64,000 bases of DNA from a candidate division WOR-3 bacterium (GTDB lineage: Bacteria > Hydrothermota > Hydrothermia > Hydrothermales > JAJRUZ01), in NCBI GenBank assembly GCA_024277525.1, contig JAJRUZ010000019.1, positions 17 to 64,016 of the forward strand, in the 5' to 3' direction. Shown here one piece after another: positions 5,809 through 49,490 of this stretch (position 1 is the first letter of the stretch; the number at the start of each line of letters is the position of its first letter). The translations under genes and the position numbers were made by a program. Below the pieces are notes generated by a model that ran no database searches, was not told the origin of the DNA, and worked only from the letters and a program-made list of their open reading frames with translations.

Positions 5809-5821
5809 GGGATTTCAACCC
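5809..5821 (-). promoter_or_regulatory. T-arm-like leader hairpin upstream of maeB
   Basis: GGG-TTGAAAT-CCC, 27 nt before the ATG. Confidence 0.5.
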
Positions 5822-5823
5822 TT

Positions 5824-6231
5824 TCAGTGCCCTCCTTTTCGCCTTTTCTCATTATATTTAAAATCAAGATAATTTTGCAATAAGTAAGCAGCAGATATTG
5901 CATGAATATTCTCTTTTTTGTGCCTTTCCGCCAGTTTTGAAGTAAATCTTTCATCCCAATAAATTACTTTTATTTTAAATTTTTTTTCAATTTCTCTCCC
6001 TTTTTTTCTTATTTTTTGCGATAACTCAAGCCTTTTTCCGGAAAGGGAAAGAGGCTCACCCATCACAATTTGATAAGGATTATATTCATCAATTATTTTT
6101 TCCAATGTCTCAAAAAAATTACCCTTTTTTAAATCAATTTGAAAGAGCGGAGAAGCAATTAATTCTTTCTCATCCGAAATTGCAAATCCTATGTACCTTT
6201 CACCGTAATCTATACCCAAAATTCTCGACAT
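5824..6231 (-). CDS. ruvX: Putative pre-16S rRNA nuclease / Holliday junction resolvase RuvX (YqgF)
   Basis: ILGIDYGERYIGFAISD and WDERFTS motifs. Confidence 0.9.
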   Translation of the reverse strand: MSRILGIDYGERYIGFAISDEKELIASPLFQIDLKKGNFFETLEKIIDEYNPYQIVMGEPLSLSGKRLELSQKIRKKGREIEKKFKIKVIYWDERFTSKLAERHKKENIHAISAAYLLQNYLDFKYNEKRRKGGH

Positions 6232-7830
6232 TTAAAATTCCATCTTTTTTATTTTATCAAACAAAAATTTAAAAAAAATAAGACCGAGAAATACAGATAA
6301 AGAAACAAATATTAAAAACATTGCAAAAAAACTTATGCTTTCTCCGTAGTAGAATTTTCTGAAAGGAGTTTGAATTAAAATATAAACGCCCGTAATCAGA
6401 TAAATAATCAAAACCATTGCCGTCAGAAATGCACCCGGTCCTGAGGCAATTTTTGCAGGATTTGTCTCATTAAATTGAGGCAAAATATACCCGATACAAA
6501 GAGCCAAAAAAGCAATGTTAAAACACATCACAGGGATGGAAAGAATCATATAAAAGGTCTGGTTTTTAAAAAATTGAACCTTTAAAGAAAAATGAGTAAG
6601 AAAGAAAATCAGGATTCCTAAAATAAAGACCATCGAGAAGTAAAACAAAAATTGTGTCTTAAATAAATTGAAAGGGTTTGAGGGAGAGTAATACAGTATT
6701 TGGAGTCCTTTATTTTCAAGGGAAGGAGCGGTATAAATAAACCTCACCGCGATAGTAATCAAAAGATAAAGCGTAAAAGTAAAGTTTGCATAAGCAATCA
6801 ATATGTGCCATATCGGGTGGGTTATTCTGATTCCTTTGCCTCTGATCGAAATGATATAGAGAACAAAAAGCAACAGTAAAAAAATAAATTGGGAAAGCTG
6901 GGAATAATTTCTGTAAAAATTTTTCAGTTCTTTTTGAAGCAAAATAAATTTAAACCTTCTTCCTCCTTTTGAGCCCTTTGAAATATAGGTTTTGTGATAT
7001 AAATTTTGGAAAGGAAGATTTATTAAAATTAAAAAGAGTAAAATATTATAAAATAAGAACAAGAAGGTAATGAGGAGAGGATTTTTGGTAGAGAGAATAT
7101 TTGCGGTTAACCAATTCGAAGGTATAAAAAAGGGAGAAAGGGAGCCTGCTTTTTTTAATATTAAGACCGCTTCTTTTAGACTTTTTGCGTTAAATACTTT
7201 GAAGACCCCCGGGTTCACATATTTTAAATAAATGAAAATAAAAATAAAAAATAAAAAGCCGAAAAAAACAGGGATAAATTCCCTTTTTACCATGGGAGTG
7301 AATTTCATGAAGAGATAAAAAAGTAATATGCCGGTAAGTGAAGCAGATATAAGGTAAAGGATAAAATTGATAGGTAAAAAGAAAAGGTTTCCTTTTGCGG
7401 GCGGAAAACTGTTTATAAAAGAAAAAAGAAATGGCAAAAGAAAAATTAAAGGAACCCAGCTTGAATATAAAAGAATTTCAAAAAATTTAAAAGAATATAA
7501 AGTCTCCTTTTTAATGGGAAATTTATTTAAAAAATCAAGTTCAATGTCCTCAAAGATTAAAGAGAAGCTTCCCACGATATTACTTAAAGCAAGAAAGAAA
7601 AAAATTCCCATAAGAGTGAAATCAAGGAATTTAAATGAGATTATTTCTCCGATAACCGGAATTGAGGAAAGAAAAGAAAAAACTCTTGTAAAAATTAAGA
7701 ATAAAACAAAAAATAAAAATATACCAAGTGAAAAGGGAACCCAAAAATTCTTCCAGAATTCTTTACTGAAAATCAAATTCTTAAAATTTTTTGCTCTAAG
7801 ATTTAAAAGAAGTAAAAATTCGGAAATCAA
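6232..7830 (-). CDS. Polytopic membrane protein, putative ABC exporter permease
   Basis: About 12 hydrophobic segments; [10 protein letters not shown] motif resembles ABC-export permeases. Confidence 0.6.
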
Positions 7831-8438
7831 ATATATCCGAGTTCTTCCAGTCTTTTTTTTACTATTTCTTCCTCTTCTTCTGTGTAACCCACTTCCTCTT
7901 CCTCTTTTTTTTCAACCATGTCTGCCTCTTCTAAATAGCGAATTATTTTGGAGACACTTTCTTCGGGTGTTTCCTTATCTGTCTCGCATACAACCTCCGG
8001 ATTAAGCGGTTCCTCATAAGGGTCATCAATACCCGTAAAATTTTTAATTTTCCCTTCCCTCGCAAGCTTATACATTCCTTTTACATCCCTTTTTTCGCAT
8101 ACTTCAACAGGTGCCTTTACAAAAACTTCCACAAAATTTCCGAGCAAATCCCTTGCTTTGTCCCTTCCTTCCCTGTAAGGAGACACAAGTGCAACAATTA
8201 CATCTATTCCGTGTTTTGTAAGAAGTTCAGCAAGAACAGAAACCCTTCTCATATTTTCAAGACGGTCCTCTTTTGAAAATCCGAGGTCTTTATTCAGAAA
8301 ATTCCTTACAATATCACCATCCAGAATTTCAACATCCCTTCCTCTTTCAATCAGTTTTTCCGCCAAAATTTTTGCAATTGTGCTTTTGCCGGAACAGGGC
8401 AAACCTGTCAGCCAAACACAAATTCCTCTTTTTTTCAC
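7827..8438 (-). CDS. cysC: Adenylyl-sulfate kinase with an acidic LxxLGY C-terminal tail
   Basis: [37 protein letters not shown]. Confidence 0.93.
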
Positions 8439-8459
8439 TTTTCATTTTTTTTAAAAGCC

Positions 8460-8472
8460 GGGGGTAGAACCC
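8460..8472 (-). promoter_or_regulatory. T-arm-like leader hairpin upstream of cysC
   Basis: GGG-TTCTACC-CCC, 21 nt before the GTG; no SD. Confidence 0.5.
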
Positions 8473-48482: not shown

Positions 48483-48484
48483 AA

Positions 48485-48745
48485 ATGCCTAACAAACATT
48501 ATGCTTTTGTTTTGATAAAGGTTCAAGTAGGTAAAGTTCCTTCGGTTGTTCAAAAACTTTACAATATAAGGGAGGTAAGGGAAATTTTTATGATAACCGG
48601 TCCATTTGATATATTGGTAATAATTGAGACTGACACATATGACAGGCTCGGTGAAATTCTCGCTGAAGAGATCCAATAAATAGGCGGAATTGAAGACACC
48701 CAAACAATGATGGCTTTTAAAACTTATAAATACTTGGAGAGATAA
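48485..48745 (+). CDS. Stand-alone Lrp/AsnC ligand-binding (RAM) domain with in-frame TAA at 48677-48679
   Basis: AFVLIKV..G...ITGPFDILV...EEIQ*IGGIEDTQTMMAFK. Confidence 0.8.
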
Positions 48746-48760
48746 GGTTAGCCAGATAAT

Positions 48761-49459
48761 GTGAAATCACCCTCCCTGATAGCTGCTTTTATCGGTGGTC
48801 TTTTTTCCTTTATATCCCCCTGTATATTGCCCCTTATCCCTGCATATCTTTCATATATAACAGGAACCTCAATTGAAGAATTAAGGAAAGAAAAAAAATT
48901 ATCATTTTCCATTTTTCTCCATTCCTTACTTTTTGTTCTGGGGTTTTCCACAATTTTTATTTTTCTGGGTTTTTCTGCTTCTTTTATCGGCTCATTTTTT
49001 ATAAACAAAAAAGCAATAATTGAGAAAATTGCAGGCATATTTATAATCATTCTTTCATTCCATTTAACAGGGATCTTCAGATTAAAATTTCTGGACATAG
49101 AAAAAAAACCGAATCCTGCTCAAATTGCGGTTCCCTTTTTAAGGTCATATCTTGTCGGTTTGGCGTTCGGGCTCGGCTGGACTCCATGCATCGGACCCAT
49201 TCTCTCTGCAATCCTTGCAATTGCAGCAACTTACGGCTCACCTTTAAAAGGAATTATACTTCTCTCCTTTTACTCACTCGGGCTTGCAGTTCCTTTTATA
49301 ATATCCGGACTCTTTATTAATCTCTTTTTTGTTTTCTTTTCGGGTATCAAGAAACATTTAAGGAAAATTGAAATTATTGCAGGTATTTTTCTTCTTATAC
49401 TCGGAATTTTACTCTTAACCGGTGTTTTTTCAAACATTTCTTTTGCACTCGGAGTATAA
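48761..49459 (+). CDS. ccdA: Cytochrome c biogenesis protein CcdA
   Basis: SFISPCILP and GWTPCIGP. Confidence 0.92.
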   Translation: MKSPSLIAAFIGGLFSFISPCILPLIPAYLSYITGTSIEELRKEKKLSFSIFLHSLLFVLGFSTIFIFLGFSASFIGSFFINKKAIIEKIAGIFIIILSFHLTGIFRLKFLDIEKKPNPAQIAVPFLRSYLVGLAFGLGWTPCIGPILSAILAIAATYGSPLKGIILLSFYSLGLAVPFIISGLFINLFFVFFSGIKKHLRKIEIIAGIFLLILGILLLTGVFSNISFALGV

Positions 49460-49477
49460 AAAAATTTAAAATTTAAT

Positions 49478-49490
49478 AGGTTCAAATCCG
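49478..49490 (+). promoter_or_regulatory. T-arm-like leader hairpin upstream of the DUF5362-like gene
   Basis: GG-TTCAAAT-CC, 20 nt of A-rich SD-less spacer before the ATG. Confidence 0.5.

Follow-up and report, generated by a model that had tools for sequence, protein, structure and literature searches.

How ribosomes initiate on bacterial messages that carry no Shine-Dalgarno (SD) sequence is a long-standing open question, and gene finders file groups of genomes under an "unknown signal" (PMC6028130). The present work concerns a 64,000-nt stretch of DNA from a candidate division WOR-3 bacterium, hereafter the window (G000:C7:17-64016; G+C 33-34%), in which a first-pass annotation had pointed out seven short hairpins that mimic the T-arm of tRNA and stand close upstream of start codons. 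We followed this element, hereafter the hairpin, through the genome that holds the window (G000; 2,338,067 bases in 102 contigs), through five genomes of a sister genus in the same family, f1 (G001-G005), through a genome of the sister family f2 (G006), and across the phylum. From comparative genomics alone, we infer a function for it: in family f1, the hairpin is probably a signal on the mRNA for SD-independent translation initiation, a reading to which we assign a probability of roughly 55%.

Several described systems share part of its features. When tRNA-like folds are placed in cis upstream of an SD, translation in a purified E. coli system increases 2- to 6.3-fold; for yjdF aptamer and tRNA leaders, the authors proposed that the RNA touches the ribosome directly, perhaps at the E site (PMC9142559). 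Like the yjdF aptamer and the grafted tRNAs, the hairpin brings tRNA mimicry to a bacterial leader, upstream of the ribosome-binding region. Those, however, are whole L-folds that work alongside an SD and are known from single genes or synthetic constructs (PMC9142559), whereas the hairpin is 13-15 nt long, has no D-arm, and is found at more than 200 genes, mostly without an SD. It also shows no second conserved loop or helix with which to form the elbow of a yjdF-type enhancer.

T-arm mimics in mRNA are likewise described for eukaryotic TRUB1/Pus4, which modify mRNA stem-loops containing GUUCNANNC (PMC5340967; PMC13492117). The hairpins carry the same sequence-plus-structure code, namely GUUCNANNC in a stem-loop. 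The TRUB1/Pus4 sites differ in that they are scattered in eukaryotic mRNAs, follow no positional rule with respect to the start codon, and are not known to act in initiation (PMC5340967; PMC13492117). The viral internal ribosome entry sites (IRESs) and tRNA-like structures that engage the L1 stalk offer another likeness, that of a message RNA copying part of a tRNA in order to hold the ribosome. They are, however, large multi-domain eukaryotic viral RNAs (PMC5984033; bioRxiv 10.1101/2025.10.12.681957), and for the hairpin a ribosome contact is a proposal. At the level of abstracts, we found no bacterial chromosomal counterpart of such elbow mimics in the literature.

A lineage-wide departure from the SD is known from the Bacteroidetes (GeneMarkS-2 group B), which belong to the same broad group of phyla and also have an A-rich, unstructured spacer (PMC6028130). 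There, an A-rich stretch without structure, ~9 nt from the start, serves as the signal, not a conserved hairpin 22 nt away, and the text of the GeneMarkS-2 paper contains 0 occurrences of 'GGTT' (PMC6028130). With the SD itself, the hairpin has in common that it is a short sense-strand cis signal at a fixed distance from the start, before first genes and inside operons, and that it occupies genes with a strong SD in the sister family. It differs in having, by inspection, no complementarity to the 16S rRNA tail (GGATCACCTCCTTTCT in G000), in lying at about -22 to -35 as opposed to -5 to -13, in being folded with a covarying stem, and in belonging to one family only.

Among the classes considered, the hairpin fits the T-loop definition of loop and closing pair only; it does not fit those of an SD, a tRNA-like fold, an Rfam family, a promoter, an ops (operon polarity suppressor) element or a repeat. 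It would be a new kind of start-linked signal. No description of a T-loop hairpin as a start-proximal bacterial signal was found in the literature, which was covered mostly as abstracts; supplements (the GeneMarkS-2 group lists, the WOR-3 genome papers) could bear on whether the lineage had been flagged earlier.

A strand-specific element at a fixed distance from start codons

The pattern GGTTCRAHYCC occurs 216 times in the 2.34 Mb of G000, with 32 copies inside tRNA or tmRNA genes (the exclusion set being the 47 tRNA genes and the tmRNA gene called by ARAGORN) and 184 elsewhere. Outside tRNA genes, GGTTCNANNCC is found 258 times against ~22 copies expected from base composition; the same pattern read backwards occurs 0 times in G000. 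An open reading frame (ORF) of at least 60 residues, with ATG, GTG or TTG counted as start, begins 12-40 nt downstream on the sense side of 208 of these 258 sites, compared with 30 on the antisense side. Lowering the limit to 30 residues changes the counts to 222 and 51; among the rest, several intergenic copies stand in front of short ORFs, for instance an L34-like one. The distance from the end of the core to the start codon peaks at 19-29 nt, with a mode of 23 and a sharp lower bound at 19 nt. Our gene calls were crude (longest ORFs with greedy removal of overlaps), which blurs start positions in the background sets; the hexamers GGTTCA, GTTCAA and GGGTTC rank first upstream of all calls in G000 (5-6 fold), above TATAAT. 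Thus, the strand-specific placement at a fixed start-codon distance that had been proposed from the window's copies holds across the genome.

The hairpin stands at about 1 in 10 genes of G000. Its carriers number more than 200 and are diverse in kind; among them, judged by eye from the N-termini, are HU-, EF-P-, V-ATPase-B- and H+-PPase-like genes, besides the L34-like short ORF. This breadth lends no support to the regulon linking amino-acid use to gluconeogenesis at which the first-pass annotation had hinted for the window's genes. We also dropped a link to secretion, as N-terminal hydrophobic segments are only mildly enriched at hairpin genes (41% vs 32%).

Since the core is identical to the T-arm of the genome's own tRNAs, many of which contain GGTTCAAATCC, the copies might be a non-functional by-product, that is, tRNA- or repeat-derived sequence spread through intergenic DNA. 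This is extremely improbable given that no flank conservation extends past ~15 nt, that the rule of strand and distance is strict, and that the hairpin is kept at orthologues while its flanks diverge. In addition, copies within coding sequence, in either orientation, are at chance level (~35 by eye vs ~22 expected genome-wide). Nor does the hairpin behave as a repetitive extragenic palindrome (REP) or a miniature inverted-repeat transposable element (MITE), its unit being ~13-15 nt and its starts so unevenly split between the sense and the antisense side.

Hairpin genes have lost strong SD sequences

SD sequences were compared in 646 orthologue pairs between G000 and G006 whose alignments start at most 8 residues from both N-termini. 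Among the hairpin genes (n=86), 33% have an SD of at least 4 nt in G000 as opposed to 87% of the orthologues in G006: the SD was lost in 49 pairs, gained in 2, and is present in both members of 26 and in neither of 9. Among the other genes (n=560), the shares are 45% and 52%, with 113 lost, 76 gained, 177 in both and 194 in neither. Hairpins favour genes whose orthologue has an SD (75/365 vs 11/281, p = 8e-11), and the rate of SD loss is higher at hairpin genes than at others (49/75 vs 113/290, p = 5e-5). The energy of hybridisation to the genome's own 16S tail gives the same picture. For hairpin genes, it is -4.06 kcal/mol in G000 and -10.79 kcal/mol in G006 (Wilcoxon p = 2.5e-11), and for other genes -5.36 and -5.98 kcal/mol (Wilcoxon p = 0.006). 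That strong SDs decay exactly where the hairpin appears is predicted by a ribosome-recruiting signal, and not by a stabiliser, a processing site or a repressor site. The SD-independent initiation suggested earlier for the window's copies gains support from this comparison.

The signal becomes visible only against the orthologues. In G000 alone, the share of genes with an SD is not clearly different, at 39% of hairpin genes and 36% of all genes (20% vs 35% in a small subset with unambiguous starts), and about half of all G000 genes have no SD.

Spacing is also tighter where there is no SD that could fix the register. The hairpin lies a median of 22 nt before the start in genes without an SD (interquartile range 20-23, n=106), compared with 25 nt in genes with a strong SD (interquartile range 23-28, n=60). 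Where SD sites are kept, they fall between the hairpin and the ATG.

SD use is lower in G000 than in G006 even outside hairpin genes, and family f1 seems to be drifting from SD-led initiation in general.

A folded T-loop element

In the column profile, conservation runs from about -2 to +12 around the 11-nt core, followed by an A-rich run at +14 to +18 and then by the purine-rich SD zone. The conserved unit is ~13-15 nt, with no information beyond ~2 nt on the 5' side and ~8 nt on the 3' side of the core. No D-arm or acceptor stem of a cloverleaf, and no second conserved loop or helix, shows in the flanks of this profile.

Pairing beyond the core provides evidence for a fold. The pair -1/+11, which flanks GG/CC, is Watson-Crick at 144 of 184 sites vs 70.9 +/- 6.2 in shuffles, and is made up of 62 A-T, 68 G-C and 10 C-G pairs, with a further 18 sites having G-T. 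Registers shifted by one give 67 (58.3 +/- 4.7 in shuffles) and 64 (62.5 +/- 5.2). The fourth pair is Watson-Crick at 101/184 sites (78 +/- 5 in shuffles), and the fifth and beyond are at chance. At 38 sites taken from three genomes, 34 pair at -1/+11, with 14 double changes and a covariation score that was reached in 1/500 shuffles; pairs 4 and 5 are unpaired in 22-24 of these sites. Covariation between A-T and G-C is unlike a duplex DNA site, and the element thus appears to be read as a folded single strand, most simply as RNA.

The loop is that of tRNA. At 201 start-proximal sites, the leading loops are TTCAAAT (71), TTCAATT (40), TTCAATC (13) and TTCAAGT (10), so that U54, U55, C56, A58 and Y60 are kept and position 57 is mostly A, with a minority of T, C or G. 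When GTTCNA alone is used as anchor near starts (482 sites), the preceding base is G in 299, and the two closing positions are C in 226 and 238. A 7-nt loop closed by a G53:C61-like pair is what defines the T-loop motif. The stem, by comparison, is reliably 3 bp and sometimes 4-5, not the 5 bp of a T-arm, and the earlier description as a T-arm mimic accordingly has to be narrowed to the loop and its closing pairs. A comparison with Rfam 15, which had been asked for, gave 0 matches at the gathering threshold over the whole window; a search of 5700-14300 at E<=10 gave three weak hits, none of them at hairpins.

Place in the transcript

Promoter-like sites were sought within 90 nt upstream of the 120 hairpins in G000 whose upstream side is non-coding or divergent for at least 90 nt. 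Sites scoring at least 11/12 precede 14 of the 120 in the sense orientation and 1 of the 120 in the antisense control; at a score of at least 10/12, the numbers are 40 and 14. The -10 box of these 40 sites ends 6-60 nt before the hairpin. Hairpins are also found between cistrons: of the 134 with a co-directional upstream gene, 40 begin within 15 nt of its stop codon. Judging by these placements, the hairpins lie in 5' untranslated regions (UTRs) or else between cistrons, and promoter-like boxes precede them at distances that vary, much as had been claimed for the window. The ald hairpin, which in G000 follows a divergent promoter region, precedes an operon-internal gene in 5/5 sister-genus genomes. 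As the hairpin is kept both with a promoter and inside an operon, and as its promoter distance varies, its fixed partner is the start codon and not the transcription start.

A leaderless promoter could also explain the loss of SDs, and we therefore tested for leaderless geometry. It was rejected: the column profile has no -10-like signal at a fixed distance after the hairpin, nor at -12 to -7 from the ATG, and TANNNT ending at -5 to -9 is rarer at hairpin genes without an SD (21/109) than at other SD-less genes (434/1215). More broadly, the conserved letters could act as a DNA-level signal, be it a leaderless or short-leader promoter with an alternative sigma factor, a GG-N7-CC operator, or a non-template hairpin read by a NusG-type factor, as ops is by RfaH. 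Leaderless transcription would entail SD loss, the GG of SD-less genes lies at about -33 from the start, near the -35 position of a leaderless mRNA, and RfaH-type factors substitute for SD function. We nonetheless consider a DNA-level signal very unlikely. Covariation between A-T and G-C at -1/+11 would not be expected of duplex DNA, and the fixed -10 spacing of a sigma-70-type element was not seen, with canonical promoters lying upstream of the hairpins and the retained SDs lying between hairpin and ATG. Unlike ops, moreover, the hairpin is intercistronic in those 40/134 cases and stands at a set spacing from the start codon, and the number of NusG copies does not follow its distribution.

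The same positions could belong, by analogy with tRNA-like punctuation, to an element of mRNA punctuation or stability, at which a tRNA-processing nuclease would cleave, or 5' decay would be blocked. Placed as near to the ribosome-binding region as can be tolerated, it would give each cistron a defined and protected 5' end. RNase P and RNase Z do recognise the tRNA elbow (PMC4810234). Hairpins between cistrons often come right after the upstream stop (0-1 nt from stop to core in 14/61 co-directional cases within 40 nt), some stand near a predicted 5' end (-10 to core 6-9 nt in 7/40), and the lower bound of the distance to the start is sharp at 19 nt. In most promoter-proximal cases, however, 10-50 nt separate the hairpin from the predicted 5' end. 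The acceptor/T-arm helix that RNase P and RNase Z measure is roughly 12 bp long, whereas the hairpin offers a stem of 3-4 bp. A stabiliser would be served by any stable loop and would not need a conserved T-loop, and punctuation predicts neither the selective loss of strong SDs at hairpin genes nor the tighter spacing in SD-less ones. On balance, such a role appears unlikely.

Conservation and distribution

The hairpin is maintained at orthologous genes. Among 223 reciprocal-best orthologue pairs between G000 and 400 kb sampled from two sister-genus genomes, it is present in both members of 13, in one only of 2 and 5, and in neither of 203 (Fisher p = 2e-15). tRNA 3' ends beside a gene account for 2 of the 13 two-sided pairs and 1 of the 7 one-sided pairs, and in two or three one-sided pairs the other genome has a variant loop (GGTTAAAATCC, GGTTAAATTCC). 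The flanks of orthologues have diverged while the hairpin persists with altered stems and loops. These patterns across genomes indicate that the hairpin is under selection at orthologous genes, and the conservation in relatives on which the original proposal depended is found within family f1.

Among 201 genomes of the phylum, the hairpin has expanded in a single family. GGTTCAAWTCC occurs 67-149 times per genome in f1 (6 genomes, 2 genera), 21-29 times in the sister family f2 (5 genomes), and 3-31 times in the other 190 genomes. With a covariance model that includes the A/T-rich flanks, so that tRNAs score poorly, and with the best 150 candidates scored per genome, f1 genomes have at least 88-146 matches, f2 genomes 3-15, and those of six other families 0-8. 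Of the 31 exact matches in two f2 genomes, 22 are tRNA genes, and 0 of the other 9 have the start-codon layout (by eye); in the whole of G006, the ranking of upstream hexamers is led by TAATTA and TATAAT. Genus g4 of f2 has canonical copies, which make up 4 among the best 12 covariance-model matches, and one of them precedes a gene that resembles, in its flank and N-terminal codons and by eye only, an f1 outer-membrane-like gene with a hairpin. In view of these copies, the element seems to predate its expansion in f1. The closest named relative of the fbp gene in the window is in the metagenome-assembled genome Candidatus Hydrothermus pacificus (78% identity), where it has a plain promoter and an SD and no hairpin; by this relationship, the G000 organism is a bacterium of WOR-3/Hydrothermae type. 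In viral contigs, one scan with a 19-nt hairpin-plus-spacer pattern found 19 contigs with one match each, in coding or phage-tRNA contexts and none with the start layout.

The G+C content of rRNA tracks growth temperature. With a 16S rRNA of 64% G+C and tRNAs of 65% in a genome of 33%, the G000 organism would thus be a thermophile. The cultured WOR-3 strain sy37 has 60.6% G+C (PMC12285271) and, compared with ~30-33% here, is probably not a member of the hairpin family.

A proposed mode of action and the search for a receptor

Our favoured reading can be set out as follows. The cis-acting mRNA hairpin, with a 3-bp (sometimes 4-5) stem closed by GG/CC and a T-loop UUCAAAU or UUCAAUU, would occupy the 5' UTR or the space between two cistrons; its 3' edge would fall ~20-22 nt ahead of the start codon, and an A-rich single-stranded spacer would follow. 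It would recruit or position the ribosome without SD pairing, and would have displaced the SD at most genes that carry it. The reader of the folded RNA would be the initiating ribosome or a ribosome-bound T-loop reader; candidate receptors are a tRNA-elbow site of the ribosome (for instance the L1 stalk/E site), a protein of the platform, or a T-loop enzyme that serves as adaptor. The conserved nucleotides are those that give the T-loop its fold, and they are recognised in the A, P and E sites of the ribosome (in the E site via the L1 stalk) as well as by RNase P, RNase Z, TruB and the CCA-adding enzyme (PMC4810234). We further propose, more tentatively and with somewhat less than even confidence, that the hairpin could be a structure-based second ribosome-binding site: a T-loop hairpin ~22 nt upstream that would be read directly by an elbow-binding surface or platform component of the ribosome, would set both recruitment and register, and would have replaced the SD at those genes that are translated most strongly.

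Several observations weigh against a start signal read by the ribosome. First, the loss of SDs is correlative, comes from a comparison of two genomes and depends on crude ORF-based gene calls, and 26-27 of the 86 hairpin genes retain an SD, so that the hairpin is not simply an alternative to it. Second, nearest-neighbour energies make the hairpin barely stable at the temperature at which the organism probably grows: its mean minimum free energy rises from -3.7 kcal/mol at 37 C to -1.0 kcal/mol at 60 C and -0.3 kcal/mol at 70 C. An element so nearly unfolded at 60-70 C must have a partner, or some stabilisation specific to the T-loop, to keep it folded. Third, the precedent of the yjdF aptamer and tRNA leaders required an intact elbow (D-loop G19/G20), which the hairpin does not have (PMC9142559). 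Fourth, no receptor was found among the candidates tested. The 16S rRNAs of G000 and G006 are 88% identical, their 3' tails differ by one base downstream of the CCUCC core, and no platform insertion was seen; bS21 is present with similar length in all 5 genomes checked; NusG copies number 2, 1 and 1 in f1 and 2 and 1 outside; and TruB (TruB_N) is single-copy in 15/15 genomes, hairpin-free ones included. A CsaA/Trbp111-like tRNA-binding protein at first appeared in G000 and G003 only among 5 genomes, and was rejected as receptor once 41 genomes showed it to be missing in 4 of 6 hairpin-rich genomes and present in two other families. A search of the PUA family gave no family-specific hit, a comparison of orthologue lengths gave no gene of ribosomal-protein size with an extension, and lists of ORFs found only in G000 or only in G006, inspected by eye and covering 400 kb of the sister genus, contained no receptor candidate.

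Rather than the ribosome, a trans-acting protein could be the reader, whether TrmI, TruB, an enzyme that methylates or thiolates U54, or some other RNA-binding protein; by binding or modifying the hairpin, it would tune translation or stability of ~10% of the mRNAs as a global post-transcriptional regulon. The conserved G53:C61-like pair together with U54, U55, C56 and A58 are the features that T-loop enzymes read, modification of mRNA stem-loops by TRUB1/Pus4 offers a precedent, and the hairpin needs stabilising at high temperature. The presence of a single TruB in hairpin-free genomes, however, leaves the restriction to one lineage unexplained by that enzyme, and E. coli TruB binds isolated stem-loops (3-12 bp) weakly, with a Kd >1 uM except for one 12-bp substrate (PMC13492117). 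A repressor would not predict the loss of SDs, and the candidates tested, in a search far from exhaustive, included no family-specific protein. We therefore regard such a regulon as rather unlikely.

Should the ribosome read the hairpin as we propose, tRNA mimicry would be a general cellular start signal and not just a viral trick, and the hairpin would be a chromosomal, genome-wide bacterial counterpart of the tRNA-mimicking IRES elements, as well as a compact, thermostable, SD-independent start element for synthetic biology. The lineage offers a discrete and easily mutated candidate signal, with over 200 natural copies per genome, naturally occurring variants that are compensatory, and a sister family that lacks the expansion. 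The motif can also improve start-codon calling in f1 genomes and flag their contigs in metagenomes.

Some features of the genes surveyed deserve mention in their own right. The 16S rRNA of G000 (G000:C29, ~42300-43900) has a 9-nt insertion near alignment position 235 relative to G006, the sole notable indel. The CsaA/Trbp111-like protein is a stand-alone protein of 111 residues (G000:C30:34215-34544; locus L239 1013-1348, minus strand); its distribution is patchy, in that G000 and G003 have the gene, G001 has a stop-containing remnant of it, and the other three f1 genomes lack it. The truB frame of G000 (G000:C48:6445-7209) encodes 247 residues, compared with 293-314 in 13/14 relatives and 222 in one 75%-complete genome. 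A weak PUA-like match lies downstream, set apart by a TAA, so that the G000 TruB may be without its PUA domain, or the assembly may be in error. The PUA domain tunes the substrate choice of TruB (PMC13492117). Two frames carry extensions relative to G006: a sigma-70-family-like protein (by eye; G000:C54:12882-14117) with 132 additional C-terminal residues, and a cytidylate-kinase-like protein (G000:C11:5879-7144) with an extension of 198 residues, which adjoins a probable S1 gene that has a hairpin.

The hairpins of the window

The seven hairpins of the window have exactly the sequences, strands and start distances given in the first-pass annotation, and its names for the downstream genes are borne out by Pfam. 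Three are on the minus strand. GGG-TTGAAAT-CCC (GGGTTGAAATCCC; 5809-5821) lies 27 nt from the ATG (5779-5781) of a gene with malic enzyme and PTA_PTB domains (maeB), with an AAGGAG SD in between. GGG-TTCTACC-CCC (GGGTTCTACCCCC; 8460-8472) lies 21 nt from the GTG (8436-8438) of an APS kinase gene (cysC) without an SD. The T-loop-like GGG-TCCGATT-CCC (GGGTCCGATTCCC; 14020-14032) lies 22 nt from the ATG (13995-13997) of a gene for a 733-residue protein with a C-terminal secretion sorting domain (Por_Secre_tail). The plus strand carries GGG-TTCGATT-CCC (GGGTTCGATTCCC; 8568-8580), 27 nt from the ATG (8608) of a class V FBPase (fbp; FBPase_3), with an AAGGAGG SD in between, and (G)GG-TTCAATC-CC(T) (GGGTTCAATCCCT; 14143-14155), 20 nt from the ATG (14176) of alanine dehydrogenase (ald; AlaDh) without an SD. 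Further along the same strand, AGG-TTCGATT-CCT (AGGTTCGATTCCT; 48450-48462) lies 22 nt from the ATG (48485) of a small ORF with an AsnC ligand-binding domain. As had been noted for this lrp copy, it is embedded in the last codons of the upstream IF-2B/mtnA-family ORF (47463-48482). The seventh, AGG-TTCAAAT-CCG (AGGTTCAAATCCG; 49478-49490, plus strand), is intercistronic, 19 nt past the stop of a co-directional upstream ORF and 20 nt from the ATG (49511) of a DUF5362 gene without an SD.

The window has no tRNA genes by ARAGORN. GGTTCRAHYCC matches 4 times against 0.33 expected (4 or more in 0/100 shuffles), and a looser pattern 9 times against 2.21 expected (9 or more in 0/100 shuffles). Seven of the nine are the hairpins above, and the other two (41650 and 58519) are antisense, inside ORFs, and not leader copies. 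With filters off, the covariance model ranks the seven hairpins, all of them in its training set, as its top seven; the next match in the window reaches only 16.8 bits, which indicates that the list is complete.

All five promoter-proximal hairpins of the window lie downstream of promoter-like boxes, at 15-59 nt. A consensus sigma-70-like promoter (TTGACA-17-TATAAT, 12/12; 8513-8541, plus strand) has its -10 box ending 27 nt before the core of the fbp hairpin, which places that hairpin inside the 5' UTR. The others score 10/12: TTGATA-18-TAAAAT (14099-14128, plus strand) ends 15 nt before the core of the ald hairpin, and, on the minus strand, TTGAAA-17-TAAAAT (14052-14080) ends 20 nt before the hairpin of the 733-residue protein gene, TTGCAA-18-TATAAT (5851-5880) 30 nt before that of maeB, and TTGATT-17-TATAAT (8532-8560) ~59 nt before that of cysC. 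Over the whole scanned region of the window, promoter-like matches are no commoner than in shuffles (27 vs 24.8).

Elsewhere in the genome, two tandem pairs of hairpins on the same strand, 67 and 72 nt apart, lie at G000:C6:17386-17463(-) and G000:C32:49113-49195(-); the upstream hairpin of the C6 pair falls within the last part of a coding region. ARAGORN left uncalled two G+C-rich T-arm matches, G000:C66:17757 (+) and G000:C27:21087 (-), whose 3' flanks are tRNA-like. One of them resembles the 3' part of tRNA-Ala, and both may be tRNA fragments (e.g. integration-site remnants) or missed unusual tRNAs. Finally, the AsnC-domain ORF of the window (48485-48745, plus strand) has an in-frame TAA (48677-48679) after 64 residues, its Pfam match covers positions 1-56 of 73, and the frame continues sensibly for ~22 codons past the TAA, which may be a premature stop, a sequencing error or a site of read-through.

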